NCBI GenBank assembly: GCA_034429195.1 | Contig: DAOUGQ010000007.1 | Location: 251,899 to 315,898 of the forward strand | Reading direction: 5' to 3' | DNA length: 64,000 nucleotides | Source: Anaerolineaceae bacterium | GTDB lineage: Bacteria; Chloroflexota; Anaerolineae; Anaerolineales; Anaerolineaceae | Part shown: positions 20,401 to 64,000 of the stretch, in pieces | How positions within the stretch are numbered: the first letter of the stretch is position 1 | Layout of the letters: each line of letters begins with the position of its first letter | Made by a program: the position numbers and the translations under genes | Notes under the pieces: model-generated | Told to the model about the DNA's origin: nothing | Seen by the model: only the letters and a program-made list of their open reading frames with translations | Database searches by the model: none

Positions 20401-20878
20401 AACAATTGAAATTCATGTGCCGGTTGAAGACGATGGCAAAGCCATCGTTTCAATTGCAGCCAGTACCTCTCTTTTTACTGAAGAAGAAGTTGCAACTGTA
20501 AAAGAATTATGGGATGACTTTATTGTCAGCCATGATAATAAAGATGATTATCAATTCCTGGCAGCTTATAAAAATGGTGTTATGGCAGGTTTTTCATGTT
20601 ATGGGCACAGGGCTCTTACAAGAAGTACCTATGATCTGTACTGGATCGCAGTGGATAACAGACTTCAACATCATGGAATTGGTAAATTGCTGTTGCAGGC
20701 AACAGAAGAAGCGATCAAGAAATTGGGTGGAACGATTATTGTGGTTGAAACTTCAACAACCGAAGTATACGCCCCAACACGCAAGTTCTATATTGCACAA
20801 AACTATCAAGTTGCAGGTGAAATTGCAGATTTTTACGAGCCCGGGGATGGGTTGATGCTTTTTATAAAGGCTTTATAA
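20393..20878 (+). CDS. GNAT family N-acetyltransferase
   Basis: Acetyl-CoA motif LQHHGIGKLLL. The ATG at 20393 overlaps the ATP-grasp stop by 8 nt. Confidence 0.7.
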   Translation: MDETIEIHVPVEDDGKAIVSIAASTSLFTEEEVATVKELWDDFIVSHDNKDDYQFLAAYKNGVMAGFSCYGHRALTRSTYDLYWIAVDNRLQHHGIGKLLLQATEEAIKKLGGTIIVVETSTTEVYAPTRKFYIAQNYQVAGEIADFYEPGDGLMLFIKAL

Positions 20879-23458: not shown

Positions 23459-23502
23459 ATTTTCATCTTAATCGAATTGTTTTTACAATTTTAGGTTTGT
23501 TT

Positions 23503-24081
23503 ATGGATATAAATTCAATCCCCGACGAGATGCTTCAGTTCTTTAAAGCGCTGGCAGACGCCAATCGGTTAAAGATAATAGGCTTGCTTTCACAACAACC
23601 CTGTACGGTTGAACAGCTTGCTGCCATGCTTGGGTTGAGTAAGTCCACTACTTCACATCACCTTTCTTTTCTTGCAAAAGCGCACCTGGTGGAAGCACGT
23701 GCTGATGGGCATTATTTCTACTATTCTTTATGCACTGAGACGCTCGAAAAAATGTCAAAGAAGCTATTACAACGAGATTCTTTGCCAACACTGGCTGATT
23801 CCGTGGATATGGAAGCGTATGATCGCAAGGTATTGCAAACATTCACTGATTCTGAAGGACGGATAATTGCATTTCCTTCTCAGTTAAAAAAATACCAGGT
23901 TCTGTTGAAATATGTTGTAAAAGCATTCGAACCAGGTATTCGCTATTCAGAAAAACAGGTAAACGAGATACTATCTCGCTTCAATGAAGATACTGCTGAT
24001 CTACGAAGAGGATTGGTAGAGTTTAAACTCATGGCACGCGAGGGTGGTGGAGGAGAATATTGGCGTCTGGATACGCCTTAA
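23503..24081 (+). CDS. ArsR-family HTH regulator fused to a DUF2087-like C-terminal domain
   Basis: The ArsR signature is FKALADANRLKIIGLL...CTVEQLAAMLGLSKSTTSHHL. The C-terminal half resembles DUF2087. Confidence 0.75.
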   Translation: MDINSIPDEMLQFFKALADANRLKIIGLLSQQPCTVEQLAAMLGLSKSTTSHHLSFLAKAHLVEARADGHYFYYSLCTETLEKMSKKLLQRDSLPTLADSVDMEAYDRKVLQTFTDSEGRIIAFPSQLKKYQVLLKYVVKAFEPGIRYSEKQVNEILSRFNEDTADLRRGLVEFKLMAREGGGGEYWRLDTP

Positions 24082-24126: not shown

Positions 24127-24948
24127 TTACTTTGTCTTTCGAATGGTTGCATCCAGCTCCGCCAAATCAATCCGGGCAGTCATATCCAATTGTAGCGGGG
24201 TGATCGAGATCATACGGTCGTGTCGTAAAGTATAAATATCTGAATCTTTACTCACCAGGTCAAAACGATCCACGGGATGCCCTTCAATATAGGCGGGATG
24301 ATCCCAGTTTCCTTTTCTATTCAGGTAAGGCTCAAAATACCGGTGCTCACCAAGGCGGGTAATCCTCCATGGAGTCTCAGGTGTCGCATCATGGGGTACA
24401 TCAAGTTTGATAAGGTCCACACCATTTGGCAGACCGTGGGTTAAGATCCATTTTGCGAGCCTATGAGTATAGTTGGCTGCGGTAGAAAAGTTGATGTCGG
24501 TTGGATTATTTCGGTAATCCTGGATATTGATCATCTCCAAAGAAGCAGCAATAGCAGGAACACCCATCGCAGCTGCTTCCATGGCAGCGCCAACCGTACC
24601 AGAAACCGTAATGGAATTACCCAGATTCTCTCCGTAATTGATACCCGAAACCACCAGATCAGGCTTGACATCCATGACTTCCAGCAAGGCGTGCATCACC
24701 ACTTGGGCTGGGGTACCACCAATGGCATGCACTGTCCAGGATTGATCGCCAATTTGCAATTGCTTCACCAGGATGCGCCCATCATAGAACGTTGGCATAC
24801 TTCGGCCGCTGGCTGAAACCTGGTCGCGTGGAGCGGCTACGGTCACAAAACCGAGGGAGGAAAGAGCTTCAGCAGCAGCCCACAAACCGGGCGATTCGAT
24901 ACCATCATCATTAGTCAATAAGATTTGTTTTCGTTTTGGTTTTGCCAT
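24127..24948 (-). CDS. surE: 5'/3'-nucleotidase SurE
   Basis: The N-terminal ILLTNDDGIESPGL is the SurE signature. Confidence 0.9.
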   Translation of the reverse strand: MAKPKRKQILLTNDDGIESPGLWAAAEALSSLGFVTVAAPRDQVSASGRSMPTFYDGRILVKQLQIGDQSWTVHAIGGTPAQVVMHALLEVMDVKPDLVVSGINYGENLGNSITVSGTVGAAMEAAAMGVPAIAASLEMINIQDYRNNPTDINFSTAANYTHRLAKWILTHGLPNGVDLIKLDVPHDATPETPWRITRLGEHRYFEPYLNRKGNWDHPAYIEGHPVDRFDLVSKDSDIYTLRHDRMISITPLQLDMTARIDLAELDATIRKTK

Positions 24949-24960
24949 ATGAATACCTTT

Positions 24961-25001
24961 CCCTTTTTAAAACGAAGAGCGGTTATTATTATAACCGCTC
25001 T
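24961..25001 (-). terminator. Intrinsic terminator downstream of tRNA-Arg
   Basis: 11-bp stem AGAGCGGTTAT-tatt-ATAACCGCTCT (24976-25001). On the minus strand it is followed by TCGTTTT. Confidence 0.6.
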
Positions 25002-25008
25002 ATAAGTG

Positions 25009-25082
25009 TGCCCCCGGCAGAACTCGAATCTGCAACCTTTTGCTCCGCAAGCAGACGCTCTATCCAATTGAGCTACGAGGGC
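25009..25082 (-). tRNA. tRNA-Arg, anticodon GCG by manual folding
   Basis: Reverse-strand sequence GCCCTCGTAGCTCAATTGGATAGAGCGTCTGCTTGCGGAGCAAAAGGTTGCAGATTCGAGTTCTGCCGGGGGCA. It folds with a 7-bp acceptor stem, D arm GCTC/GAGC, T arm GCAGA-TTCGAGT-TCTGC and anticodon loop TTGCGGA. No CCA is encoded. Confidence 0.8.
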
Positions 25083-25242
25083 AGGTAAGCTTGCATACCA
25101 AATATACCTCGTACTGGAAGAATCGTCAAGACGATTTACAACAGACAACAGGTCAACTGTAATAAAGAATGTGCTGGTACTTCAGCCTCTTCTTTAAAAA
25201 TTCGACTTCTGAATTTTTTGGAATTTCAGGTGTCGGTGTTCT

Positions 25243-25926
25243 TTAAACCTGATAACTCTCTCCCGGTTTGAGAACCACTACTTCTGTTTTCGTCTGAGTA
25301 CGAACCTGTTCAGCCCATTTGTCAGCATCCTGGGCAATCAATTCCCAGGTGGAATAATGGATCGGGATAACAGCTCTGGGTTGTAGTAATTTGACAGCCC
25401 GCAGGGCGTCTGATGGTCCCATGGTGAAGTTATCGCCGATGGGAATCACCGCCAGATCGATACCTTCCTCACCGATCAATCGCATATCGCCAAATAGGCC
25501 GGTATCTCCTGCCAGGTAGATCTTCTTGCCCGATGCTAGGGTGATTAAGAAACCAGCCGGATTACCACCACAACTGCCATCCGGCAGGCAGGAACCATGT
25601 AGCGCCATCGTCAACTTTACATACCCAAAGGGATAAGAGAAACCCCCTCCTAGATGTTGTGAATGGGTCTTCACTCCGAATTTCTTCATCCAATCAGCAA
25701 TCTCTGCATTGCAGATAACCATAGCATCACATCGCTTGGCAATCGTAACAGCTTTACCAACATGGTCGCCATGTCCGTGAGTGACTAGGATGTAATCAGC
25801 CGCGATAGTATCTGGATTTGAAAATGAGGCAGCTGGATTCGGGAAAAAAGGATCTACCAGTAAAGTGGTACCCTCTATCTCAAGTTGCAATGCGGCATGC
25901 CCCAGCCATGTGATCTTGTAATCCAT
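25243..25926 (-). CDS. Metal-dependent hydrolase, MBL fold (UPF0173 family)
   Basis: HGHGDH motif; 227 aa, typical of UPF0173. Confidence 0.8.
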   Translation of the reverse strand: MDYKITWLGHAALQLEIEGTTLLVDPFFPNPAASFSNPDTIAADYILVTHGHGDHVGKAVTIAKRCDAMVICNAEIADWMKKFGVKTHSQHLGGGFSYPFGYVKLTMALHGSCLPDGSCGGNPAGFLITLASGKKIYLAGDTGLFGDMRLIGEEGIDLAVIPIGDNFTMGPSDALRAVKLLQPRAVIPIHYSTWELIAQDADKWAEQVRTQTKTEVVVLKPGESYQV

Positions 25927-25938
25927 GCTTTCCTCCGC

Positions 25939-26757
25939 TCATTTCGAATTTTTCTTTTGGATTTCATCCAACAATAATGGATGGAGTGCGGGATTGGCTA
26001 CCAGAACATTGCAGGGGTGTATCAGGTAATTGGAGCCACCCAACAAGTCGGTAACTTTACCTCCTGCTTCTTCAACGATAACTGCACCTGCAGCAATATC
26101 CCAGGAATGGATGGAGTTTGTCCAGAAGCCATCAAGTCTACCGGCAGCTACATAAACCATATCCAAAGCAGCAGAACCCATGCGCCGCACACCCTGCGTA
26201 ATTCTGGATAAATGCACAAACAATTCAAGAGAAACACGTCTTTTTTCGCCTTCGTCAACAGGGAAACCTGTCACCAGCAAGCTGTCGATCAATCTACTGG
26301 CATTGGCAACATGGATGGGTTCACCATTCAATGTGGCACCCTTTCCATGTTCAGCAGCAAAACATTCATCCCGCATGGGATCATAGACTACTCCCATTAC
26401 TGCCTTGCCATGCTCGGTAAATGCCACTGAAACACAAAAAATTGGCAGGCTGTGGGCATAATTCATCGTACCATCCAGCGGATCTATGTGCCAGCAGGCT
26501 CCGTCATCCCCTTTTAGAAATCCACTTTCCTCCGTCATTATGGCATGGTCAGGAAAATTGCTGCGTATCTGTTCGAGCAGGTAGGTTTCTGATTTCTTAT
26601 CCATTTCGGTTACCAGATCTATTGCACCTTTGTGATGGATCTGGTGCTCTTTGCCAAAGCCTTCGCGCAGAATCGCACCTGCCTGGGTTGCCCATTGGGT
26701 CATCTGATTTAGTGTAGGTTTCATAATATCTCGTTCCTCAAAAAATTCATCTTTCAT
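25939..26757 (-). CDS. Inositol monophosphatase family protein
   Basis: Motifs WHIDPLDGT and WDIAAG. The true start may be the ATG at 26724, which has GAGGAA upstream. Confidence 0.85.
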   Translation of the reverse strand: MKDEFFEERDIMKPTLNQMTQWATQAGAILREGFGKEHQIHHKGAIDLVTEMDKKSETYLLEQIRSNFPDHAIMTEESGFLKGDDGACWHIDPLDGTMNYAHSLPIFCVSVAFTEHGKAVMGVVYDPMRDECFAAEHGKGATLNGEPIHVANASRLIDSLLVTGFPVDEGEKRRVSLELFVHLSRITQGVRRMGSAALDMVYVAAGRLDGFWTNSIHSWDIAAGAVIVEEAGGKVTDLLGGSNYLIHPCNVLVANPALHPLLLDEIQKKNSK

Positions 26758-27382
26758 ACCGCATTTCTGCAGCTAATTGCTCAAAATATGCCACCAGTGA
26801 TTCATGACGTTGTTGCGCCATCGCCCGGGCTGAAGGGGTAAATAACTTCTCGCGTATGTGGATTAATTTAAAAAGGTATTCGTGATATGCGCTGTGAGGT
26901 TCTCCTGGCTCATGCTCTCCGCTGCGGAGAAAAAGTTCTGAAGGTTCCGCAAATACAGGTTGGTCTGCCAGCACTGCATAGGCAATGGTACGGGCGGTAC
27001 CAATGGCACCGATCACATCCATTTTATCTGCATCAAAGATGATCTTCGCCTCCAACGTCTGGGGTTTGTTGCCATCTCCACGATAGCGATGAGAACGGAT
27101 GCAATGCTGCACGGCTTTGATCCTTTCAGGCTGCCATCCTTCCTCTGTTAGCACTATTCCGGCAAACTCTGCAGATGCAATATGATGCCCTTTTCGTTCT
27201 TCGGTTCCTGGTGCCGCACCTTTTACATCGTGCAGAAGAGCTGATGCCGCTACTATTTCCTTATCAGCCCCTTCCATTTCTGCCAGCTTCATCGCGGTAT
27301 GGTAGACACGGAGCACATGCTCAAAATCATGCGCGGCATCCGTCTGTTCGTACCACTTCTTAACCTTCTCAATGCTCACCAC
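26747..27382 (-). CDS. HD-domain phosphohydrolase
   Basis: HD motif LLHDV plus a histidine upstream. I chose the GTG at 27382, just after GAGGTGG. The track start at 27457 would overlap hutI by 89 nt. Confidence 0.65.
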   Translation of the reverse strand: MVSIEKVKKWYEQTDAAHDFEHVLRVYHTAMKLAEMEGADKEIVAASALLHDVKGAAPGTEERKGHHIASAEFAGIVLTEEGWQPERIKAVQHCIRSHRYRGDGNKPQTLEAKIIFDADKMDVIGAIGTARTIAYAVLADQPVFAEPSELFLRSGEHEPGEPHSAYHEYLFKLIHIREKLFTPSARAMAQQRHESLVAYFEQLAAEMRYER

Positions 27383-28652
27383 ATTCCACCTCGATATGTT
27401 CTGTGATGGGATATATTTTTCCTTTTTTAATGACTGTATCCACCAGGTTGCTGCCAAAACGATACATTAGTTGGCGATAATCATCCACCGACAGGATCAG
27501 AAGGTCTGCCTGTTTACCGGGTTCGATCGAACCCAGCCTGTCAGCTCGTTGAATGGCAGCTGCAGCGTTGATGGTTGCGGCTGTCAGTGCTTCTGCGGGG
27601 GTTATTTTCATATACCTGCATGCAAGCGCCATAACAAACTGCATATTCTCACACCATGCCGTACCCGGGTTGAGATCGGTTGCCAGCGCCAGTATTCCGC
27701 CTGAATCAATGATGGCTCGTGCTGCGGTGTAATGCTGGTCTGCCAAACCAAAGGGTGTACATGGCAAAGATACCGCTACAGTATTGCTCTTTGCCAGAAG
27801 GCGGAGTTCTTCGGGAGGAGTTTTCACCAGATGGTCGGCAGAGGCTGCTTTAAGTTCGACTGCCAGCCGGGTGCCGCCCAATGCTTCAAATTCATCCACG
27901 TGAATTTTCAACGGGAAGCCCAACGCTTTCGCTTTCAAGAAAATCTTCCAGGTTTGCTCCAGAGAAAATGCGCCTTTTTCGCAGAATGCATCTACAAAAG
28001 GTAAAGGAAGATTGGAGGCATACTTCTTCCACCATTCCAGAACTGCAGGAAGCATTTCAGTGCAAAGAATATTGGTGTATTTATCTGGATCATTTTTATA
28101 TTCAGGGGCGATGTCATGCGCACCCAGAAAAGTGGGGACAAGTTCCAGGGGGCAAACCTCGTTAAGCTTCAAAATGGTCTGTAACTGGTCAAGTTCAGCG
28201 CGGATTTCCAACCCATACCCGCTTTTCGCTTCTGCGGTAGTGGTGCCATACGAAAACATCCTGCGCGCTCGCGGCAGAGCCTGCTTTACCAACTCTTCCA
28301 CGCCAGCTTCCCGGGTGGCTCGTACTGTAGAAGCGATCCCGCCACCGGCTGCCATGATCTCCATGTAAGTTTTACCCTGGAGACGCATTTCGAATTCTGC
28401 CGCCCTGTCTCCCGCCCAAATTAAATGCGTGTGAGGGTCAACAAATCCGGGAACAATCGCTTTCCCTCTCGCGTCCAATTTTTCCTCTTCAGGGTAGGCT
28501 GCTTGAAGTTCTGACGAGAGTCCCACTGCTTCAATTTTTCCATCCCGTATTAAAACAGCCCCGTCAGCCAGGATGTTCAAATCGTTCATGCGAGCACCCC
28601 TGCGAACTCCACCAGCAAGGGTAACTAACTGTGAAGCAGAATGAATGAGCAT
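27369..28652 (-). CDS. hutI: Imidazolonepropionase-type amidohydrolase
   Basis: PGFVDPHTHLIWAGDRAAEFEMRLQGKTYMEI..GGGI..TVRATR matches HutI as I remember it. No hutU or hutH is nearby. Confidence 0.7.
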   Translation of the reverse strand: MLIHSASQLVTLAGGVRRGARMNDLNILADGAVLIRDGKIEAVGLSSELQAAYPEEEKLDARGKAIVPGFVDPHTHLIWAGDRAAEFEMRLQGKTYMEIMAAGGGIASTVRATREAGVEELVKQALPRARRMFSYGTTTAEAKSGYGLEIRAELDQLQTILKLNEVCPLELVPTFLGAHDIAPEYKNDPDKYTNILCTEMLPAVLEWWKKYASNLPLPFVDAFCEKGAFSLEQTWKIFLKAKALGFPLKIHVDEFEALGGTRLAVELKAASADHLVKTPPEELRLLAKSNTVAVSLPCTPFGLADQHYTAARAIIDSGGILALATDLNPGTAWCENMQFVMALACRYMKITPAEALTAATINAAAAIQRADRLGSIEPGKQADLLILSVDDYRQLMYRFGSNLVDTVIKKGKIYPITEHIEVECGEH

Positions 28653-28655
28653 GTC

Positions 28656-29735
28656 TTAATCCTCTTCCGTTTCTGTTCTTTTAGGTATATAGGCAATTAA
28701 TTCAACTACTTTTTCTGCCAGAGAATTGATCTCTGGCAGGTTGGCTTGCTCGATTTTACCCGTATCGCCTAACCGTGTAATTTCTGGGGTAATAGGCAGA
28801 TGTGCTAACACTTCGCTTTGAGCTGCCAAAGCGATCTCGTTGGAGTGGCTTTCACCAAAGAGGAAGTATTCTTTCCCCGTATCAGGAGCGCGGAAGAAAC
28901 TCATATTTTCCACCACCCCCAAGAAGGGGATGTGCAATGCAGCGATCATGCCCACTGCTTTCCTGACCACCATGGCTGCCAGTTCCTGTGGAGTTGTTAC
29001 CAGCAGCACACCCTGGAGCGGCAGCCGTTGCGTTACGGTCAGCGCGGCATCCGAAGTTCCAGGAGGAAGGTCCACCAGCAGGTAATCCAAATTTCCCCAT
29101 AGCGTATCAGTCCAAAATTGCTGAATGACCCCGGTGATCAATGGTCCCCGCCAGATGACAGGAGCATCTTCATCTCTTAATAAAAGATTAGTTGAAACCA
29201 CCTTGATCCCGCTCTGGGTCACAGCGGGTAATATTCCCTGTTCTGTTCCTCGCAGCCCGCCAGAAGGCAGCCCAAACAACCGCGGAATGCTCGGACCTGT
29301 GATGTCAGCATCCAAAATGCCAACCTTCTTTCCCTGTCTGCATAACGCTACAGCCAGCATGGCAGTTACAGAAGATTTGCCTACCCCGCCTTTCCCACTC
29401 ATGATCGCAATGAGATGATCCACTTTATTGAATTGGGTCAATTTTGGCAGGATCGTCTTTTTTGGCATGATGCGAGCCAGTTCTTCTTTGGTCATCTCGC
29501 CAAAGGTGATCTCAACCTGCCGCACACCGGGAAGCGCCATCACTGCCTGCCGTGCATCACTTGCGAGCCTGTCCTTCAGGGGACAGCCGGGGGTGGTCAA
29601 TGCCAGGGTGAATTTTACCCGCCCAAAATGATTGATCTCCAGGTTACGGATCATATTCAGTTCTACTAAATTTCGGTTCAGCTCGGGATCCATTACTTTG
29701 GATAAGACGTTATACACCTGTTTTTCATCAACCAT
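28656..29735 (-). CDS. Mrp/NBP35/ApbC Fe-S cluster carrier ATPase with an N-terminal DUF59 domain
   Basis: Deviant Walker A SGKGGVGKSS and a DUF59-like N-terminus. The ATG at 29735 lies downstream of GAGGAGG. Confidence 0.85.
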   Translation of the reverse strand: MVDEKQVYNVLSKVMDPELNRNLVELNMIRNLEINHFGRVKFTLALTTPGCPLKDRLASDARQAVMALPGVRQVEITFGEMTKEELARIMPKKTILPKLTQFNKVDHLIAIMSGKGGVGKSSVTAMLAVALCRQGKKVGILDADITGPSIPRLFGLPSGGLRGTEQGILPAVTQSGIKVVSTNLLLRDEDAPVIWRGPLITGVIQQFWTDTLWGNLDYLLVDLPPGTSDAALTVTQRLPLQGVLLVTTPQELAAMVVRKAVGMIAALHIPFLGVVENMSFFRAPDTGKEYFLFGESHSNEIALAAQSEVLAHLPITPEITRLGDTGKIEQANLPEINSLAEKVVELIAYIPKRTETEED

Positions 29736-30190
29736 GAGAGAAAAATTCCTCCTCAAAGATTATACCTTTGAAAAGTCTGAACCATCCAAACAGGGTGTAT
29801 TTCAGTAAACATGGAAAGAAATATCTTCCATCGAACAAAAAGCAACGAGACAATCTACTCCCCTCTCATTGATGCTTCGCAAAGCCATTTTAGACAGATC
29901 TGAACCGAATGACATGATTACCCCTCCATCTATGATACGTGAACCCTGCTGTTGCTAAATTGTTTTAGGGAGACGATCTGAATTTCTATACTGCCTGTAT
30001 TTCCTCCCTGAATGAATCATTATGGGAAGATGCGGGGAGAAAGTCAAGAGGGATCAGCTCCAGTATCTTGACAGGGTGCGATTGCTCTACTCTGGAAATT
30101 AGTAGAGAAGACTGTACCCATCCTGCTGTTCTGGCGAGCTAATGGACCTTTGCAATTTCCTGATTAACCAGACTGTCTTTTCTTGTGGAT

Positions 30191-44993: not shown

Positions 44994-45131
44994 GCCCTTT
45001 TGTCCATCTGAATTAACGACTAAGGGGAATGCTGTGCATCGCTGAACGTATGACTCAGTTTGCATTGGAATGTGAGGGTGTTGATCTACTAGCTCAGGTT
45101 CGCATTTGCTGATGATAGGGATAGGCATGGA

Positions 45132-45163
45132 TTCTGCTCGAGAGTGTCAAACAGGAGAGCGAC
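45132..45163 (-). repeat. Possible heavily decayed CRISPR repeat
   Basis: Only 14 of 32 positions match the consensus, mostly the terminal GGAGAGCGAC. However, it ends exactly 66 nt (one repeat-spacer period) before the end of the orphan repeat. Confidence 0.3.
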
Positions 45164-45197
45164 GAGATTGGCTCTTGTATAGGCTGATTTTAGGTTT

Positions 45198-45229
45198 ATT
45201 TCAATACACGCTCCCGAACGGGGAGCGAC
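45198..45229 (-). repeat. Orphan CRISPR repeat (31 of 32 identical to the array repeat)
   Basis: ATTTCAATACACGCTCCCGAACGGGGAGCGAC differs from the consensus by one C-to-A change at repeat position 9. It lies 888 nt from the first array repeat. Confidence 0.85.
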
Positions 45230-45519
45230 CTGACGTAGCAGGGTAAGCACATCACGACACAAATCATCCATAGTGCCTCCGTAAATATTTGGTAGGTATA
45301 AACAATCCTTGTATGTTTATACTCTTATAGTATGTACGTTGTCAAATGGCAATAACTATTAGTATTTTGTTATATTATTTTCCTATAACTTTATTATATT
45401 TACTTAATAACGTTTTATTGACTTTCCAGCGCAAACAGAATACCACTTACAGCATAGTATGATTGTTGCAACAAAGTAACGATTATAAACATTTGATGAT
45501 AGAAAGGAGGATTGTTGAA

Positions 45520-45936
45520 ATGATAGTTGTAGACAAGGAGAAAGCACAAAAGTGTTCAGCGTTCTTGCGAGACGGGTTCATGATGTACATAGAGCGAGAA
45601 TTGAGGCGAACCCGCCGTGTACCATCCCAGAACAGTTTTGCTGCCTGGATGGGGGTTCCACCAACAAGCCTTTCCACGTGGATGTCTGGACAGCGTTTAC
45701 CTTTGGGGAACAACGTTGATAGCATTGCCGGTAAACTTGGACCTGAAATCTATAATATTCTGGATGTGCCACCGAGGATTCCGAAAGATAAGCAATTACT
45801 CAAAATAGCTACGAACTGGCACAAACTGACAGACAACCAGCAGGCGCAGTTGTGTGAGTGGGTCGAAAACCTGACCTTTGAAAATGAGTCAAAAAAAAAG
45901 AAGGATGATCAGGGATTAGAAACACAACCCATATAA
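45520..45936 (+). CDS. XRE-family helix-turn-helix protein
   Basis: SQNSFAAWMGVPPTSLSTWMSGQRLP is a classic XRE HTH. The ATG at 45520 has AAAGGAGG 8 nt upstream, and the C-terminal tail is lysine-rich. The gene is antisense to array transcription. Confidence 0.65.
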   Translation: MIVVDKEKAQKCSAFLRDGFMMYIERELRRTRRVPSQNSFAAWMGVPPTSLSTWMSGQRLPLGNNVDSIAGKLGPEIYNILDVPPRIPKDKQLLKIATNWHKLTDNQQAQLCEWVENLTFENESKKKKDDQGLETQPI

Positions 45937-46117
45937 ACCATTTATTTTACCGACTCGACGAGTCGGTAAAAAAATCATGCAAGATAGAACATTTATACTA
46001 CGAGGAACATCATGGACTTCAAAGGCATAGCCGACCGTTAGGAAGAATTACCAGAGTGGAAAAAGTTATTGGTATATTATCGGATCATGGCAACAGAATA
46101 TTGTGAAGTCTATACAG

Positions 46118-57101
<10,984 letters not shown>

Positions 57102-57268
57102 TGCACTATATGGGCACTTCCTTTCCTATACCCCTATATTTGGGGGTTATGTAATTAATTGTTCTCTATATTCTCCTTTTTCCTAATAGTTTTATCTTTT
57201 TGAACTAGGTTTTTGTCTCTTTTTCCTGCGAACCTCCCGGTAATTCTCTGTTCACTTGGGGTTCGCAC
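57102..57268 (-). promoter_or_regulatory. CRISPR leader
   Basis: AT-rich 167-nt segment between the cas2 stop and the last repeat. It contains the inverted repeat GCGAACC (57228-57234) / GGTTCGC (57260-57266) just after cas2. Confidence 0.6.
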
Positions 57269-57559
57269 CTACACCACCAGAGTCCCCTCCAGGTCTATCC
57301 CCGGTTTTGCTCCGATATGTTCTACACGTTTTCGCCATTCATCACCGAGAAAATAGAACCGCAGGCTATCTTTTTCTACATCAATAATCTTTGTTAACTT
57401 GCTCTGGATCACCAGTAATTGTGTAGGATCAATAATACACTCAAACACCGAATTTTGCACGCGCTGCCCATAATTCTGACACTCTTTTGCCACTTTGTGC
57501 AACCGCTTTTTCCCCTCTTTCGTTTCAGTATTCACATCGTATGTGATTAGAACCATCAT
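57269..57559 (-). CDS. cas2: CRISPR-associated endoribonuclease Cas2
   Basis: 96 aa; MMVLITYDV...RVQNSVFEC is typical of Cas2. It lies adjacent to cas1 and the leader. Confidence 0.9.
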   Translation of the reverse strand: MMVLITYDVNTETKEGKKRLHKVAKECQNYGQRVQNSVFECIIDPTQLLVIQSKLTKIIDVEKDSLRFYFLGDEWRKRVEHIGAKPGIDLEGTLVV

Positions 57560-57568
57560 ACTTCCTCC

Positions 57569-58600
57569 CTAGCTCCAAAAGAATGGCGGGTATGCATCCA
57601 GGTCACCGCGCAGATAACGAGATAGCAGAAGCGCCTGAACATAAGGGATCAAGCCAAATTTTATCCGTTCTTTAAGAAAAGGATGCTCTATTTCTTCGTT
57701 CTTCCTCTCTTGCCAGGCATTTAATACCAGTTTTCTGGTGTCATCGTCCATGATGACCCCACCACTTTCTTTTGTTGTAAAGCCAGAACCTGATATTTGT
57801 TTGCGATTGATCAGAGATAGAGCCAGCCGATCTACGAATACTGGGCGCAATTCTTCTATCAGATCAAGAGAAAGTGAGGGACGCCCTGGTCTATCCTGAT
57901 GCAAGAATCCAACATAGGGATCCAACCCAACAGTCTCGAGCGCTGATGATGTTTCATTGGTCAGAATCGTGTACAGGAATGACAGCAGTGCATTGACATT
58001 ATCCAGCGGCGGGCGTCGATTGCGTTCTTTGAAATAGAAGGCATCCTTTTGTTGCAGGATCATTTGATCAAAGACACCAAAATACAATTTGGCAGCGCTG
58101 CCTTCAACTCCCATCAACTCTTCCTGCGAATGGCATTCGGGTAGTACTTTCATTGACTCTTTTAATTTTTGGGAAATACTTTTTAATGAATCTGCATCCA
58201 GCAGCATGGCATGGTCACGCACAGCACGGTCAAGCACTTTTCGGCAATTGTATAGTTTGCCCATCAAGAAAGAGGATGAGATTAGAATGCTCTTTTCTCT
58301 GCATTCCGAATATGCATACTGGGTTTTTCTAAGCAGCACATTCCCTTTCACCTTTCCTGAAACACGTGCCAGGAACCTGCCATGAGGGGTTAAAAAGCAC
58401 AACCCAATGTTTCTTTCTGCACAGATGCCCATCAGAGCCGGACTGGCACCCTGGTATCCAAAGCAAACTATATTTTCCAGATTGTGTAAAGGAAGCCGAA
58501 CGGTTACATTTTCCTCCTTTTTTATAACAATGGTTTCCCCCTCAAGTGAAAGATAAGCGTCTGGGAAAGTTACATACAGAACATTGAGGAGTTTTTTCAT
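57569..58600 (-). CDS. cas1: CRISPR-associated endonuclease Cas1 (I-C type)
   Basis: 343 aa with a Cas1 fold sequence (LDPYVGFLHQDRPGRPSLSLDLIEELRP). Its ATG overlaps the cas4 stop as ATGA. Confidence 0.95.
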   Translation of the reverse strand: MKKLLNVLYVTFPDAYLSLEGETIVIKKEENVTVRLPLHNLENIVCFGYQGASPALMGICAERNIGLCFLTPHGRFLARVSGKVKGNVLLRKTQYAYSECREKSILISSSFLMGKLYNCRKVLDRAVRDHAMLLDADSLKSISQKLKESMKVLPECHSQEELMGVEGSAAKLYFGVFDQMILQQKDAFYFKERNRRPPLDNVNALLSFLYTILTNETSSALETVGLDPYVGFLHQDRPGRPSLSLDLIEELRPVFVDRLALSLINRKQISGSGFTTKESGGVIMDDDTRKLVLNAWQERKNEEIEHPFLKERIKFGLIPYVQALLLSRYLRGDLDAYPPFFWS

Positions 58601-59271
58601 CAGCTTTCATCCAAGTACATTTGGATATATTTTGTGGCAGGGATGACATTTTCCTGCAGCTTAGGCAGGCAGATATCGTTGATTGAACAGGATTTACACG
58701 CTTTGGAGGGTTTTACCTGTGGAGTGTATCCTTTTTCATAATAGGAGTGCATTTCCAGGGCGTACTTTTTCACCAGTGTTCTTAACATATCTGTCATGAG
58801 TATTTCTTCACGGCGACGGATTTCGAAGTAATAGAGGTATGCCGAAGAGATGTTCACGGCGAGCATCTCTTCAAGGCAGATGACCTGAGCACAGAGTTGT
58901 ACCTCATCGCATTCATCCCATTTTGGTTTACCATGTTTATATTCCACTGGAACGGGTAAATACATGCCTTTACGATGAGGTAGCTGCACTCCCTCTGGTG
59001 AGGGGATGAATTCGACGACATCACACCTGCCGATCAAACCCAATTTATACGAGGCGATCGGCATGGAACGGGTGATGATCACCCCATCTCTTACTTCAGA
59101 GAAGTAGGGATCATCAGCCCGTTCGTGCATCTGTTTTCCTTCTACAGTCAGGACGTTTTCCTTCCACTGGTCTTCTACATGGATAAGCGCCCATTGCCGT
59201 CTGCAGAACGCAAAATGCTGGATGCCAGAAAGTTGCAAGAGTTCTTCAGAAGAGTATTCGGATCTATTCAT
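58600..59271 (-). CDS. cas4: CRISPR-associated exonuclease Cas4
   Basis: RecB-like nuclease with an N-terminal Cys (FAFCRRQW) and a C-terminal C-x2-C-x5-C cluster (CKSCSINDIC). Confidence 0.9.
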   Translation of the reverse strand: MNRSEYSSEELLQLSGIQHFAFCRRQWALIHVEDQWKENVLTVEGKQMHERADDPYFSEVRDGVIITRSMPIASYKLGLIGRCDVVEFIPSPEGVQLPHRKGMYLPVPVEYKHGKPKWDECDEVQLCAQVICLEEMLAVNISSAYLYYFEIRRREEILMTDMLRTLVKKYALEMHSYYEKGYTPQVKPSKACKSCSINDICLPKLQENVIPATKYIQMYLDES

Positions 59272-59282
59272 CCAAAAGAGTT

Positions 59283-60158
59283 TTATTCGCCATCGATCAC
59301 TTCACATGCAAGACCTGGTAATGTATTCAGAACTATATCGTAATCTTCTATACCTTTGGGCTCATCAATACCAGGCTTGACAGCGATCTGCAATAGCCGG
59401 TGTACTTTAGCTGAGGAATACTGTCCATTTGGATTATTATGTTTCCACCAATATAGTTTGTTAACTTCCATGCTACCTTCTGGGCGTGCCGATGAAGCAT
59501 CATTACGGAACAGGGTTTTCAACGCTTCCTTGATATCTTCTGCATCTTCATCAGAGAAGCCCGTGTTCGAAGCAAGGTGTGGATTCATGCTACCATAAAA
59601 TACATATACCCCATGGTCTACACGATGCTTCATCCCCATCGTGTCCGAAGCCTTTTTCGTGCCATCGCCTTCACCGCTTACGCTCTTGGTGATCTGAATA
59701 CTGGAAACACGATCGAGTACTGGAACCACTGAAAATGCGGGGTGAAGCGAAACAGGACCACGAATACCGATAGAAACACCAGAAGCATTGCCCGCTCCTC
59801 CGCTGAATGCAAAAACCTGTCCAAAAGCGCGCACATCTACCCATGTTGCACAGGCTGCAGTACGAAATGTGTTTTCATATTTTCTCTGCTCAGCGCTTAA
59901 AACTCCTTCTGCGCGGGAACGAAGGCTTGGATAATCATCTACCCTCTTATCATCGGATTGAACAAAGATAGCTTTCTTCATATCCATCAGCCGGTTTCGA
60001 ATTTTTCGCTTTAAAGCAACATCAGAAATTTCACCATTTCCATCGTAGTCATACCGGGGGCGGTTGCCATTCAACGGATCACCATTGGGATTGGCATGTT
60101 TTACTGAAATGATCACTGCAAAATCTATTTTATTCGTTAGAGTAGTCATTATGTTCAT
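59283..60158 (-). CDS. cas7: Cas7c (Csd2)
   Basis: ANPNGDPLNGNRPR is the Csd2/Cas7 signature. The start may be the ATG at 60149. Confidence 0.9.
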   Translation of the reverse strand: MNIMTTLTNKIDFAVIISVKHANPNGDPLNGNRPRYDYDGNGEISDVALKRKIRNRLMDMKKAIFVQSDDKRVDDYPSLRSRAEGVLSAEQRKYENTFRTAACATWVDVRAFGQVFAFSGGAGNASGVSIGIRGPVSLHPAFSVVPVLDRVSSIQITKSVSGEGDGTKKASDTMGMKHRVDHGVYVFYGSMNPHLASNTGFSDEDAEDIKEALKTLFRNDASSARPEGSMEVNKLYWWKHNNPNGQYSSAKVHRLLQIAVKPGIDEPKGIEDYDIVLNTLPGLACEVIDGE

Positions 60159-60181
60159 TCCCTTTCTATTCGAATTTTTTG

Positions 60182-60580
60182 TTATTCCAAATTTTCATGG
60201 TTATTTTCGTGCTCTTCAGATAATAAATTATCTTTCTTCTCAGTCAGCTTCTGTCGCTGGCAGTAATACCCAAGGAGGTATTCTCCAGTAAGAGCTTTAT
60301 TGCTGATGAAGTCAGCTGGATCGAATAAGCTTTCAACTTGAGCGATCAGGTTTTTGTAATAATGAGCACCCCCTAATCGAAGAATGGAAGGCGCAAGTGA
60401 ATCATGGATCTGTTTCCAGGTGCGGAAAGGACTCTGAGAGAACTGTTGCATATACCGTGCAGCATTGGTGGCACGTTTTTGTTCATTTTTATAAAGTGCC
60501 CTTTCTTCAAGAATATCCGCAATAGCAAGAAGCCTTCCATAGAGGTAGTCACGAGAATTTCTGGTTTCATCCAATGGCAT
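60182..60580 (-). CDS. cas11: Cas11c small subunit from an internal start within cas8c (predicted)
   Basis: In-frame ATG at 60580 (MPLDETRNSRDYLYGRLL...) preceded by AAGGAGAG about 8 nt upstream. The 132-aa helical product shares the cas8c stop. Confidence 0.5.
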   Translation of the reverse strand: MPLDETRNSRDYLYGRLLAIADILEERALYKNEQKRATNAARYMQQFSQSPFRTWKQIHDSLAPSILRLGGAHYYKNLIAQVESLFDPADFISNKALTGEYLLGYYCQRQKLTEKKDNLLSEEHENNHENLE

Positions 60581-62113
60581 GTTAAAACTCTCCTTTCTTT
60601 CTTTATATTTTTTAAACAAAGCACAGGCTATACTGAGTGTTTTTTCCCAATCCCAGTTATTCAATCCAATTCGGTTCGATGCTCTTCGGACTGTTGATTC
60701 AACAAGATCACGGGGGATGGGCAGACCATCCACAATACAAGGAAGCAGGCGGGAAATCGTAGCTTTTCGGAGCTTATCATCCACGCGAATTCCATAGGCA
60801 GCTTCTGCGATGTCAGTTGGGGCAGGTGCACCAATGAATGGAACGATCTGTCTTTTACCACTTTCACTATCCTGAACTTCTCGATAACGATGTAGCCATG
60901 CACATGTTGCGTGCCAGGTTTCAATTCTTTTCAGAAAATCTGGTCCTGATAGTTCGTTATAGTAGGTAATGGACATGCGACCTGGCGTTGCTGAATCCAA
61001 TGCTATGACAGTGATCTTTTCTCTTATATCCATTTTCCTGCCATACCCAGCAATTCTGTTCTTCAGTTGCACAGCAGTTTCTTGCGCCGTATAGGATTGA
61101 AAATCCTCATCAGAAGGAATATCGCCAAATAACAGTGTGATCGGATCATCGGTAGGCTGTGGGACTGGAGCGCCTGATAACGCCCAGGCAACAATAGCAA
61201 GATCTCCTTTTACATATCCTTGTCGGCTAATTAACCAAGAAAGCACATAATGAGCTTTTTGAGAAACCTCAAGGCCAACCTTGCAGGCTTGTTCATCACT
61301 AATGAAACGTCCTCGAAAAGTATAACCGTTTGAATCATTGGCAGAAATGATTTTTGCCCCATCGCCTTCTCTGCGAATGTATTTGGGATGGTTTTTAGAG
61401 ATAATCTGATATTCTCCTGTAGCATAACAGAGAGATTTATCATTCCTATTCTTAAGATAAAAATCTATCCAACTTTTCCATAATGTTGGATCCATCCACA
61501 CTCTGCTCTCAGAAATGCCAGGTTCTTCAACAATCCAACGGACAAATGCGTTTTCCTGGGGATCAACAACAGAAAAAATATCCTTCTGATTTTTGTCTCT
61601 ACTTACTTCTCCTTTATTTAAGAATTTTCCATCTTTTCCAACATAAAGAATCTGGTTTGCAATCAGGTCTTCGATCAATGCTTTTTTCTTAACATAATTC
61701 AAGACAGCTTGTGCTTTTGGATGAGCGTATGGTGACATGCACCACATAGAAAGTATTTCAATGTAATCATTATAGGGTTGCTCTGGAGAAAAACCAGACG
61801 TCACCTTGCCGCCATGATTGGTAAAATCTCCTGCTACATACTGAAGCTTATCGCAAAGAGGGTGATTTTCTGGACGACTTCCACTTCTGCTGCCTGAACC
61901 TTCAGTACAGGGAATAATTGTAGTCGAGTTGGCTTTCTCAGTAATCACGCTTGCCCGTCTGAAGTTACCCTTGTGATCTATTACAATTTCGATATGAGCC
62001 TGCGTAGTAATATGGCATATAGGTAGTAAAGGTCTTTGTTTTTCTTTCCCCGAATAACCAATACTATCCTGGCAATTCTCATAGGTTTGATATAGGTTCT
62101 GGAGCCAACTCAT
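60182..62113 (-). CDS. cas8c: Cas8c (Csd1) large subunit
   Basis: MSWLQNLYQTYEN is a Csd1-type N-terminus. The ATG at 62113 lies 1 nt after the cas5 stop and has AAGGAG upstream. Confidence 0.85.
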   Translation of the reverse strand: MSWLQNLYQTYENCQDSIGYSGKEKQRPLLPICHITTQAHIEIVIDHKGNFRRASVITEKANSTTIIPCTEGSGSRSGSRPENHPLCDKLQYVAGDFTNHGGKVTSGFSPEQPYNDYIEILSMWCMSPYAHPKAQAVLNYVKKKALIEDLIANQILYVGKDGKFLNKGEVSRDKNQKDIFSVVDPQENAFVRWIVEEPGISESRVWMDPTLWKSWIDFYLKNRNDKSLCYATGEYQIISKNHPKYIRREGDGAKIISANDSNGYTFRGRFISDEQACKVGLEVSQKAHYVLSWLISRQGYVKGDLAIVAWALSGAPVPQPTDDPITLLFGDIPSDEDFQSYTAQETAVQLKNRIAGYGRKMDIREKITVIALDSATPGRMSITYYNELSGPDFLKRIETWHATCAWLHRYREVQDSESGKRQIVPFIGAPAPTDIAEAAYGIRVDDKLRKATISRLLPCIVDGLPIPRDLVESTVRRASNRIGLNNWDWEKTLSIACALFKKYKERKESFNMPLDETRNSRDYLYGRLLAIADILEERALYKNEQKRATNAARYMQQFSQSPFRTWKQIHDSLAPSILRLGGAHYYKNLIAQVESLFDPADFISNKALTGEYLLGYYCQRQKLTEKKDNLLSEEHENNHENLE

Positions 62114-62114
62114 C

Positions 62115-62843
62115 TTACACCACTCCTTCCTTATATCCTTCGAGAAGACCTTTTTCCTCAAGTCCGCTGGAAAGAATTGGCTTCGCTTTCATCATCCTCA
62201 CAAAATTACGTGTGATGGATTTATCCTCTGGAGGTGGAAATTCAACTACCCCTTTGATCATTTTTGGGTGCCAAAAGCGAGCCCAAAACTCACCATCCTT
62301 CACCTCGTCTGGATAATCAAAACCATGAAACATCAGCCCAAAGGACAGCTCATCTGGATAATTGTCATAAAAACCTATACCTTCTCCGAAAACGCAGGGC
62401 TCAACATAACCCTGACATTCGCGTGTACCAAGAAAAATGTCTCTCCGTCCTCCCCTCTCTATCATGCGTTTAGCAACAAAGTAATGTTTATTCTCGTTTT
62501 GGTCTGCAGCCATATCTTTCCTTTGACAATTCCAGATAAAATGTGCCTGAACCTGATATTCAACATCAGAAAGATAGGTATAGATTGAGAGATCATTGCT
62601 ATTGGTATGATATTTAATCGGTCTGATACTGCGAGATTGCGTTTTGATGGGTTTCATCACCCTGACCTTGTCAATCACCCAGATGATCGTTGGCTTCCAG
62701 TAGACCGAACTCAGAATCCCTTTCAGTGCTTCATATGTGGGAATCTGATATGAATACTTCTCACCTCCTATCTTTGTTATGGGGTCGGTAAACAACGCAT
62801 ACTTTCCCCACACTTTGAATTCCACAATATTCTTATTTTGCAT
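62115..62843 (-). CDS. cas5: Cas5c/Cas5d pre-crRNA endoribonuclease
   Basis: EFKVWGKYALFTDP...YWKPTIIW is typical of Cas5d. The ATG at 62843 has AGGAGG upstream. Confidence 0.9.
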   Translation of the reverse strand: MQNKNIVEFKVWGKYALFTDPITKIGGEKYSYQIPTYEALKGILSSVYWKPTIIWVIDKVRVMKPIKTQSRSIRPIKYHTNSNDLSIYTYLSDVEYQVQAHFIWNCQRKDMAADQNENKHYFVAKRMIERGGRRDIFLGTRECQGYVEPCVFGEGIGFYDNYPDELSFGLMFHGFDYPDEVKDGEFWARFWHPKMIKGVVEFPPPEDKSITRNFVRMMKAKPILSSGLEEKGLLEGYKEGVV

Positions 62844-62853
62844 TGAGACCTCC

Positions 62854-64000
62854 TTAAGAAAACTCACATGTCACATCATTTGCATTCTCAGTATTTAATC
62901 CAAATTTTTCATCGTAACAATTTTTCTTGAGATAGAAAATACCTGCACCTTTCTGAACTTCAGAGATAGCACCTGAATCCACAAGCTTTTGAAATACATA
63001 AGGGAAAAGGTTAACAGAATATTTTTGTGCTCGCCGGAGTAATCGGTACTGCTTATCAAGCTCAGATGTACTGCATAATTCATTCACAATATCTTCCCCT
63101 TCTCTTCCATAGTAAACCACTACACCACGTGTCGGAGAATCAATCACACGGAAGGATTCAGCCGCACTTTGAAATGCCTGTGGAAAACAAATATCGGGGG
63201 CGGTTTCATAAATGGCTTTGTATTTTTTTACAGAAAGAGTATTCTGCGAAAGGACATTGACTAAATCATCATCCCTGCCCATAGGTGAATTAACACTTAC
63301 TTTGTATCGCATTTCTCCCCTACGGACGTGATAATAGTATTGGTAATATGCCGCCATCGCATCAAGCCCGATCAGATCATTTTCAAAAAGGCCTGGTTCA
63401 TTTATAAAATCATCTAAAACGCGCTCTGCTTGTTGTGAACCAATTACAATAGGTTGCAATCTTTCGATGTTTTGTTCTATTGGATTTATGATTAAAACAT
63501 TTCCAAACCCTGCCTGCATTCCATTCCGGTTACATCTCCCTGCAGATTGAGCGATTGAATCTAATCCTGCCAGATAACGGATTACTGCGCCAAAATCAAT
63601 ATCCACGCCTGCTTCAATAAGCTGCGTACTGATGCAAATTACGCGCTGCTGTTTAGAAAGTTTTTCTTTAACTTCATTTAATACATTCAAGCGATGCGCT
63701 GGACACATATTAGTACTCAGATGGTAGAGGTTCAGATCTTCCATTTTCCTGTTTTCAATGGTTTGGTACAATGAGCGAGCAGATTTTTTTGTATTAACAA
63801 CGACCAATACACTTCCTTTACACTTAAGTTGTTGTTCTGCCAGGCTAGCTACTTCTTCATCATTCCATCCACCGACTTTACGATTGTCAAAAACCTCTAC
63901 CCGTTTTAACTTCTTGTAAAGTTCTTTTTCATTCTGGATAATCCGTTGGTCGGCCTGAATAGTCAGTGAATGGTAAGCAGAATCAAGCTTATCAAGAGGT
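62854..64000 (-). CDS. cas3: Cas3 helicase-nuclease, C-terminal part (the 5' end lies outside the window)
   Basis: Helicase motif VI IAQSAGRCNR. The reverse frame remains open from 63807 to base 64000 (...KELYKKLKRVEVFDNRKVGGWNDEEVASLAEQQLKCKGSVLVVVNTKK). Confidence 0.9.
   Translation of the reverse strand, partial: PLDKLDSAYHSLTIQADQRIIQNEKELYKKLKRVEVFDNRKVGGWNDEEVASLAEQQLKCKGSVLVVVNTKKSARSLYQTIENRKMEDLNLYHLSTNMCPAHRLNVLNEVKEKLSKQQRVICISTQLIEAGVDIDFGAVIRYLAGLDSIAQSAGRCNRNGMQAGFGNVLIINPIEQNIERLQPIVIGSQQAERVLDDFINEPGLFENDLIGLDAMAAYYQYYYHVRRGEMRYKVSVNSPMGRDDDLVNVLSQNTLSVKKYKAIYETAPDICFPQAFQSAAESFRVIDSPTRGVVVYYGREGEDIVNELCSTSELDKQYRLLRRAQKYSVNLFPYVFQKLVDSGAISEVQKGAGIFYLKKNCYDEKFGLNTENANDVTCEFS

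Follow-up and report, generated by a model that had tools for sequence, protein, structure and literature searches.

An 888-bp insert with a predicted phage-type regulator gene fills one spacer slot of a type I-C CRISPR array in an uncultured Anaerolineaceae bacterium

In the present study, we describe an unusual arrangement within a 64,000-nucleotide stretch of DNA (hereafter the window) from Anaerolineaceae bacterium (assembly GCA_034429195.1, contig DAOUGQ010000007.1, forward-strand positions 251,899–315,898), in which a type I-C CRISPR array is followed, after 888 bp of DNA bearing a single helix-turn-helix (HTH) gene, by one more repeat of the same kind. The main array occupies the minus strand at 46118–57101, where a repeat scan found 167 mismatch-free repeats of 32 nt (GTCGCTCCCCGTTCGGGAGCGTGGATTGAAAT on the transcribed strand) and 166 spacers of 31–36 nt. 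Its leader (~160 nt, 57102–57260) lies between the first repeat and cas2, which opens a set of minus-strand genes at 57269–63807 comprising cas2, cas1c, cas4, cas7/csd2, cas8c/csd1, cas5c, and the 3' part of cas3; NCBIfam profiles matched Cas1c, Cas2 (57269–57559), Cas4, Csd2, Csd1, and Cas5c above cut-off, and the C-terminal part of Cas3 below it. A longer contig of the same strain (L027) contains the whole cas operon, and the order of its genes beside the array, cas3-5-8c-7-4-1-2, is that of type I-C. Because the minus-strand cas genes lie upstream of the array, position 46118 marks the trailer side; the last repeat on this side (46118–46149) is perfect, and the main array possesses no degenerate terminal repeat.

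The solitary repeat beyond the trailer side had been pointed out in a sequence-only reading of the window as a 31/32-identical copy at 45198–45229, 888 bp from the array, and the repeat scan confirmed it (minus strand, same orientation as the array; ATTTCAATACACGCTCCCGAACGGGGAGCGAC). It is the only extra repeat copy in the window, even when 8 mismatches are allowed. Its one difference from the array repeat, a C-to-A change at plus-strand position 9, corresponds to G24-to-T on the transcribed strand and falls within the last 11 nt of the repeat, leaving the repeat hairpin intact; these last 11 nt form the 5' handle of the CRISPR RNA (crRNA) in type I-C systems. Next to the orphan repeat is a 34-nt spacer (45164–45197, minus strand), followed by a decayed repeat-like unit (45132–45163, minus strand; GTCGCTCTCCTGTTTGACACTCTCGAGCAGAA), of which only the 5' 10 nt are kept. 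This unit, likewise noticed in the sequence-only reading, was borne out by the scan: it matches the repeat at 14/32 positions overall, a level seen at about 1.3% of background positions, while its last ten plus-strand bases (GGAGAGCGAC vs GGGGAGCGAC) match at 9/10 and stand exactly 34 nt ahead of the orphan repeat. A 10-mer matching this well was found at 1 in 103,440 background positions, corresponding to a probability of approximately 6e-5 over six spacer-length phases. On the transcribed strand, it is the 5' end of the repeat that has survived and the 3' end that is degenerate, which is the way in which terminal repeats usually decay. The unit is unable to form the repeat hairpin, and no further decayed repeat was found when one was sought at 45264.

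The orphan repeat, its spacer, and the degenerate unit would thus be the original trailer end of the main array, as judged from sequence anatomy. This is indicated by the absence of a degenerate last repeat from the main array and by the lack of leader motifs upstream of the orphan repeat, and the shared orientation, the spacer phase, and the 3'-degenerate repeat point the same way. The relevant motifs were defined by aligning the leader of the window with that of a second genome, the metagenome-assembled genome (MAG) Anaerolineaceae bacterium R103_13 (see below), which share GGAGRATATAGAGAA...CCCCCAWATATRGGGG...TATRGTGCA, with CCCCCAWATATRGGGG forming a palindrome and TATRGTGCA standing beside the first repeat; none of the motifs common to the two leaders was detected upstream of the orphan repeat. 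Neither the window nor the cas promoter contains a significant target for the stranded spacer, which would be the oldest of the array. This spacer is unlikely to yield a working crRNA, with or without the insert, and is probably dead, given the mutated 5' handle on one side and a 3' repeat without the Cas5c hairpin on the other. A 60-amino acid open reading frame (ORF) with a GGAGG ribosome-binding site is listed by public gene calls on the minus strand at 45089–45271; it starts inside the insert, crosses the orphan repeat, the spacer, and the degenerate repeat, and is most likely spurious.

The insert itself (45230–46117) measures exactly 888 bp between two complete repeats, that is, one spacer slot. 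Its earlier description as AT-rich applies to the 45290–45519 segment (27.8% G+C) and does not extend to the HTH gene (45.6%) or to the insert as a whole (39.3%, with the non-array part of the window at 42.6%). The AT-rich segment lies directly upstream of the HTH gene on the plus strand and contains promoter-like hexamers (TTGTCA-18-TATTTT, 45339–45368), several inverted repeats (e.g., ATGTTTATA / TATAAACAT at 45313 and 45484), and a ribosome-binding site (AAAGGAGG, 45504–45511) 8 nt upstream of the gene. The gene (plus strand, 45520–45936) is intact, encodes an XRE/CI-like HTH protein of 138 amino acids, and is the only substantial ORF of the insert; as the sequence-only reading had stated, it lies on the strand opposite to the array. 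The two are convergent, so that any read-through from the array would be antisense to the HTH gene. Directly after the stop codon, a hairpin with a perfect 13-bp stem (TTTTACCGACTCG-A-CGAGTCGGTAAAA, 45945–45973) was identified, with a free energy of −15.9 / −17.8 kcal/mol and a z-score of about −5; an Rfam scan returned only a chance match to a miRNA hairpin. The remaining DNA (45976–46117, plus strand) may be what is left of a next gene: it carries a promoter-like sequence (TAGAACATTTATACTA) and an ATG at 46012, from which an ORF extends that has an in-frame stop as codon 10 and is truncated by the repeat at 46118. This ORF is weakly similar (z 2.4) to the small membrane protein encoded after the gene in homologues, which is suggestive of a decayed start of the module's next gene. 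The HTH gene itself is intact, with a ribosome-binding site, a promoter-like region, and a hairpin, whereas the sequence after it carries a premature stop.

The relatives of the HTH protein were collected through a full HMMER scan of 1.84 billion representative sequences, which yielded 491 relatives at E ≤ 1e-3 and 77 at E ≤ 1e-10, all of them approximately 120–145 amino acids long and aligned end to end; the protein of the window retains all of the nearly invariant positions of this family. A word-based protein search returned only the query itself, and a contig search with the family profile returned only short contigs. On its own, the protein reached the Pfam HTH_31/HTH_3 profiles at E 0.03, below cut-off, had no NCBIfam match, and matched PHROG 8/638/4 at E 1e-4 to 1e-3 (PHROG 8 at E 9e-5). 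Among 42 family members, 34 matched PHROG 8 and 26 matched PHROG 4, both of which are groups of transcription regulators or repressors. When the family profile was compared with the Protein Data Bank, weak matches were obtained to the CI N-terminal domains (E 2e-3) of TP901-1, to P22 C2, and to the HTH of PezA. A single-sequence structure model was all-helical (predicted local distance difference test, 66), and a fold search with it gave only non-significant matches of the XRE type. PADLOC reported a weak RmrA-type HTH match only (E 1e-5), and neither PADLOC nor NCBIfam gave an anti-CRISPR-associated assignment. Taken together, these matches identify a real gene for what is predicted to be a phage-type regulator. 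It shares with the CI/Cro-type XRE regulators of phages (PHROG 8, 4, 2967, 638) a predicted HTH core (SQxxFAxW.GV.PTSLSxW), the small size, and a position at a divergent early promoter, whereas additional helices are present at the N and C termini in its family, of which no member has been described.

The genomic context of the relatives was read at five loci (L014–L018). In all five, the HTH relative stands at a divergent promoter region, and wherever the contig extends upstream (all except L014, which starts just before the gene), a small gene is found on the opposite side, which is itself HTH-like in L016–L018. Downstream, there is a hairpin and then a small membrane protein, and the wider neighbourhood encodes a RecT-like annealing protein, a replication initiator, Dam and N6/N4 DNA methyltransferases, and an HNH nuclease. 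By this gene content, the loci are best read as phage early or immunity regions, and the insert would correspondingly represent a fragment of a phage-type regulatory module. In the closest homologue locus, L014, the hairpin lies at the same place after the gene and has the same stem ends (TTTTACCGA...TCGGTAAAA). None of the five loci lies in a CRISPR array, and no match to the CRISPR repeat was seen in them during the spacer and insert comparisons, in which the repeat itself was not scanned for directly. One of these phage-like contigs bearing a family member, L015, also contains an ISL3 transposase gene matched 34/34 by a spacer of the R103_13 array (L015 1515–1548); the bases upstream of that match read ATTCC, a TTC offset by one.

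Several checks that had been proposed for the insert were carried out with negative outcomes. A search for target-site duplications or partial repeats revealed neither at the junctions, nor were terminal inverted repeats or any direct or inverted repeats present there; among the ORFs of the insert, none is of the size of a transposase or integrase, and no TTC protospacer-adjacent motif (PAM) was found at the junctions. A blastn search of the insert against GenBank phages and PLSDB plasmids gave no match, as did a megablast search of the whole array against phages, and a degenerate motif scan of IMG/VR for a source returned 0 matches.

A further check concerned the orphan repeat in independent assemblies, and here the repeat persisted. 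Thirteen public contigs were examined, namely nine flank loci (L001–L009) and four array-only contigs (L023–L026), all from the same strain. In six loci from independent assemblies (NCBI MAG, ENA, and JGI), the orphan repeat and the adjoining insert are identical base for base as far as the contigs reach, and all compared copies of the HTH gene are the same; four of the six reach the first array repeat and display the same 888-bp spacing, and L004 and L006 end inside the insert. Three further JGI loci have the same gene order, the base-by-base comparison being limited to the six. Such identity across independent assemblies means that the insert structure is not an assembly artefact. In searches for other genomes bearing the locus, repeat scans of metagenomes and genomes returned one MAG (R103_13) and four same-strain array pieces, and a 25-mer from the orphan spacer had 0 matches in the metagenome contig collection, although JGI contigs carrying it exist elsewhere. 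Relatives of the neighbouring alpha/beta hydrolase gene at 85–92% identity have no CRISPR array nearby, and the ancestral state can therefore not be read from them.

R103_13, a different species, is the only other genome found with the same repeat. The same cas genes are present, the leader is homologous, and the array has the same surroundings and orientation as in the window. The flank is 89.7% identical to window positions 24176–29796, and the two genomes have no spacers in common. On its contig DAOUFE010000045.1, the array runs to 75159, after which a 34-nt spacer (spX) is followed by approximately 20.7 kb of phage-like DNA (75160–95938) in place of a repeat. At its start, this segment repeats the neighbouring spacer exactly over 34 nt. 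Its content was read in two parts (L021 3160–8000 and L019 1–7938), with 80001–88000 unread: the first encodes a DnaJ-domain protein, a VWA protein, and a VapE-like protein, and the part after the unread stretch encodes a head scaffold, a major head protein, a neck protein, a tail terminator, and a tape measure protein that breaks off about one third of the way along its profile. The segment ends at a complete repeat, 26 nt past an in-frame stop, and is followed by spX again, a further repeat, and the end of the contig, so that it is flanked by 'repeat-spX' on one side and 'repeat-spX-repeat' on the other. The rest of the array is found on contig 20 beside the syntenic flank, where spX, three more spacers, and a degenerate terminal repeat (GTCACTCCCCCTCCTGGCGAGTGCATTAAAAT) make up an array end that has decayed as in the window. 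The junctions share 34 nt or no sequence, which is too short to cause a mis-join at k=99. A long phage fragment, broken off at an arbitrary point within a gene, appears to sit in a spacer slot near the trailer in R103_13 too.

Considering the anatomy of the window together with this parallel case, we regard it as reasonably probable that a piece of phage DNA became fixed in a spacer slot near the old end of the array and cut off its last unit. The sequence-only reading had suspected that an insertion or recombination event split the array from its original degenerate trailer; the orientation and phase of the orphan pair, the missing end of the main array, the absence of a leader, and the phage-type gene all support that suspicion. 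The array would formerly have ended with a repeat and spacer, the repeat now at 45198, its spacer, and the degenerate repeat at 45132. A piece of phage DNA, presumably part of an early or immunity control region (an AT-rich promoter/operator, a CI/Cro-like HTH gene, a terminator-like hairpin, and the decayed start of a next gene), would then have been fixed in one spacer slot beside the trailer end, separating the oldest spacer from leader-driven pre-crRNA. We infer the direction of this event, its mechanism, and any function from what the locus now looks like. The most likely route would be that phage DNA recombined with the array, either with the help of spacer homology or through illegitimate joining, since both neighbouring repeats are whole and no mark of a transposon or att site is present; capture by the adaptation machinery is an alternative route, and a self-inserting element is less likely. 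The anatomy seen here would result from a double crossover in which two neighbouring spacers recombine with two protospacers of a single phage. An insertion so close to the trailer would cost the host almost nothing, the loss being one old and probably dead spacer, and this low cost would explain why the insert persists. The most economical view of the insert is that of a tolerated scar, while its HTH gene is a possible case of a retained repressor that blocks related phages: judging by its intact signals, the protein may still be made and could repress them.

A number of observations weigh against this account. The double crossover between two spacers and two protospacers predicts a TTC PAM before the trailer-side 31–37 nt, and none is present there in the window insert or in the R103_13 segment. 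No source phage was found in the phage, plasmid, and IMG/VR collections, and no spacer of the window array matches the insert or the homologue loci, nor does any R103_13 spacer match the insert; the outermost ~34 nt at either end of the insert may be phage DNA or what is left of spacers. The likeness of the next-gene remnant to its counterpart and the non-coding likeness of the insert to L014 are marginal (z about 2.4–2.8). A relative that lacks the insert was not found in the collections searched, which means that insertion is not separated from other histories by comparison. Finally, the parallel in R103_13 comes from a MAG in which 80001–88000 is unread, and it may reflect a misassembly.

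Among the alternatives, one stays close to the preferred reading and differs in the route: the 888-bp insert and the ~20.7-kb R103_13 segment could be 'giant spacers', long phage fragments that Cas1-Cas2-Cas4 integrated with the far end untrimmed. This would explain why a single slot is filled between complete repeats, why genes are cut at arbitrary points, and why the R103_13 segment starts at the same base as the normal spacer next to it, for which the two newest spacers of the window, with the same start and lengths of 32 vs 35 nt, offer a small-scale parallel. We nevertheless consider it unlikely. It is just as improbable that two separate arrays are present, with 45132–45229 as an independent mini-array behind an AT-rich leader and the HTH gene as an ordinary resident between the loci. 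The DNA upstream of the orphan repeat on the transcribed strand is indeed AT-rich, and genomes with several nearby arrays of one repeat type are common. However, this upstream region lacks the leader motifs conserved between the window array and R103_13, the degenerate terminal repeat is present in the mini-array and absent from the main array, and the intervening HTH gene belongs to a family from phage early regions; the mini-array is moreover identical, with one spacer, in all assemblies, giving no sign of acquisition. A self-inserting element (an insertion sequence (IS), a Tn7-like array-targeting transposon, or a PhiAP1.1-like prophage with the repeat as attB) that later eroded to 888 bp is another alternative to which we attach little probability. 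A CI-like repressor is typical of the region close to the end of a prophage. Elements of these kinds have been documented within CRISPR arrays (Varble et al., bioRxiv 10.1101/2020.10.09.333658; PMC11837452), but the insert shows no transposase, integrase, terminal inverted repeat, or target-site duplication, and integration of a prophage in the repeat core would have split one repeat into two partial ones, whereas both repeats here are complete. Erosion to a single contiguous module with intact junctions would also need several further events. An IS or Tn7-like transposon was rejected as a candidate, with neither transposition genes nor terminal inverted repeats nor a target-site duplication found, as was PhiAP1.1-like integration, the attL/attR split repeat and an integrase-sized ORF both being absent at the insert.

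The orphan repeat could instead have arrived with mobile DNA, as a phage-borne solitary repeat (a Racr-like RNA anti-CRISPR) or a virus-borne mini-array accompanied by an Aca-like HTH gene, and have recombined with the array through repeat homology. The orphan lies directly downstream, on the minus strand, of the divergent promoter region of the HTH gene. Had a phage-borne repeat served for the recombination, two complete repeats would remain, as observed, and the 'repeat-spX' on both sides of the R103_13 segment would fit an element that carried a repeat and spX. A 3'-degenerate repeat in exact spacer phase is, on the other hand, the normal anatomy of a chromosomal array end, the homologous phage loci showed no repeat in the comparisons described above, and no ORF of the size of an anti-CRISPR gene precedes the HTH gene in an operon, nor was it assigned as anti-CRISPR-associated by PADLOC or NCBIfam. 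We hold this origin to be quite improbable. Still more remote is a regulatory mini-array of the CreA/CreR type, in which the degenerate pair and its spacer would guide Cascade to repress a toxin or cas promoter. The arrangement of one good and one degenerate repeat around a single spacer, beside a cas-associated array, recalls such units, and the 5' seed of the orphan spacer has an 11-nt match at 23488–23498. The bases ahead of this match are AAC, not a TTC-type PAM, and the site belongs to an unrelated stretch between genes; neither the insert nor the WYL regulator-cas3 operon's promoter region offers a seed above 7 nt, no small toxin-like gene adjoins, and the 3' repeat is unable to form the processing hairpin; without a partial target that has a functional PAM, a mini-array of this kind is largely refuted. 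The seed site falls between two ORFs (20862–23378, minus strand, and 23497–24081, plus strand) and is probably a chance match.

In comparison with known systems, the closest precedents come from arrays that harbour mobile DNA. The sequence-only reading had held that no known class covers a regulator gene within a CRISPR array, a view that is not supported in light of the documented cases (10.1101/2020.10.09.333658; PMC11837452). The PhiAP1.1 prophage integrates into CRISPR repeats of type II-A in Streptococcus pyogenes as a whole, inducible prophage with its integrase, using an 8-bp attP core inside the repeat, which becomes interrupted; no prophages were found in the type I-C arrays of that species (Varble et al., bioRxiv 10.1101/2020.10.09.333658). 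The window resembles this case in having phage DNA in an array, often at the terminal repeat, with spacers separated from the locus and rearranged arrays, and differs from it in that the insert is an 888-bp fragment without an integrase, between two complete repeats, in a type I-C array. Tn7-like elements target CRISPR arrays as well (PMC11837452). These elements and IS copies are similar to the window insert in placing foreign DNA between complete repeats, where it does little harm to the array, whereas they carry transposition genes, defined ends, and target duplications, none of which the insert has. IS6110, for example, sits in the DR locus of M. tuberculosis. Recombination between a spacer and its protospacer reportedly joins phage DNA to the array through short spacer homology as a route to the transduction of CRISPR loci, and the R103_13 segment, beginning with an exact copy of the neighbouring spacer, is reminiscent of it; this process is described for transduction rather than for a stable chromosomal insert, and the junctions in the window have no detectable spacer homology or PAM. 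As for CreTA / CreR, other regulatory mini-arrays derived from CRISPR, and the solitary repeat units of phages (Racr), the likeness consists of a unit with a single spacer and a degenerate repeat close to a cas locus, and of a repeat beside mobile-element DNA with an HTH gene. The window unit differs from these in lacking a PAM-flanked partial target, a toxin, and a 3' processing hairpin, and in that no repeat was found in the homologous phage loci, as seen through the spacer and insert comparisons only.

The locus is therefore an unusual scar of a known kind of event and not a new system. It departs from the known cases in that the insert is a short piece of a phage control region with a single intact regulator gene, takes the exact place of a spacer between whole repeats, and bears no hallmark of mobility. 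The array in question is, in addition, a type I-C array of an uncultured member of the Anaerolineaceae, with a possible and much larger counterpart in a sister species.

Further observations concern the surroundings of the insert. Just past the high end of the window, at L027 2284–3261, a gene for a 325-amino acid regulator with HTH, WYL, and WCX domains stands directly before cas3, which means that the cas operon already has a dedicated regulator. Within the main array, the two newest spacers (56971–57069) come from a single protospacer: they share their leader-side start and measure 32 and 35 nt. Identical spacers at positions 125 and 127 from the leader (~48655–48820) flank a third in an A-B-A pattern. 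Together with the newest pair, this pattern indicates that sampling the same PAM site more than once, with a far end that varies, is normal for the system of the window. The last 14 nt are common to spacers 140 and 147. Compared with 46118–57101, the same-strain contigs L001, L002, L005, and L023–L025 contain two spacers that are absent from the window (after spacers 61 and 67 from the trailer), and some same-strain assemblies have a duplicated spacer 98, differences which point to ongoing loss and duplication of spacers in mid-array. On the opposite flank, approximately 15 kb of accessory genes (29.86–45.1 kb) lie between the syntenic flank and the array end in the strain of the window, encoding a methyltransferase, a DUF4256 protein, an ankyrin protein, Zn- and M23-peptidases, a GNAT protein, an AadA_C fragment, and an alpha/beta hydrolase. 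In R103_13, the degenerate terminal repeat abuts the homologue of window positions 29796 to 24176 (window 29797–29860 vs L020 564–640), and the flank homology between the two genomes breaks at the last 4 nt of that repeat.

From the perspective of annotation, loci of this kind are reported as two arrays, with a spurious ORF (45089–45271) placed over the orphan repeat. From a biological perspective, the locus indicates that CRISPR arrays are able to accommodate and retain long pieces of phage DNA where a spacer would be, a complete regulator gene included, without the usual machinery of mobile elements. If the pattern recurs, as R103_13 hints, it would point to a route of recombination or capture between phages and type I-C systems that has not been described for stable chromosomal inserts, and to a possible way for hosts to pick up phage repressors. 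Should the giant-spacer reading prove true, a captured and intact phage repressor could add repressor-type immunity to CRISPR memory.

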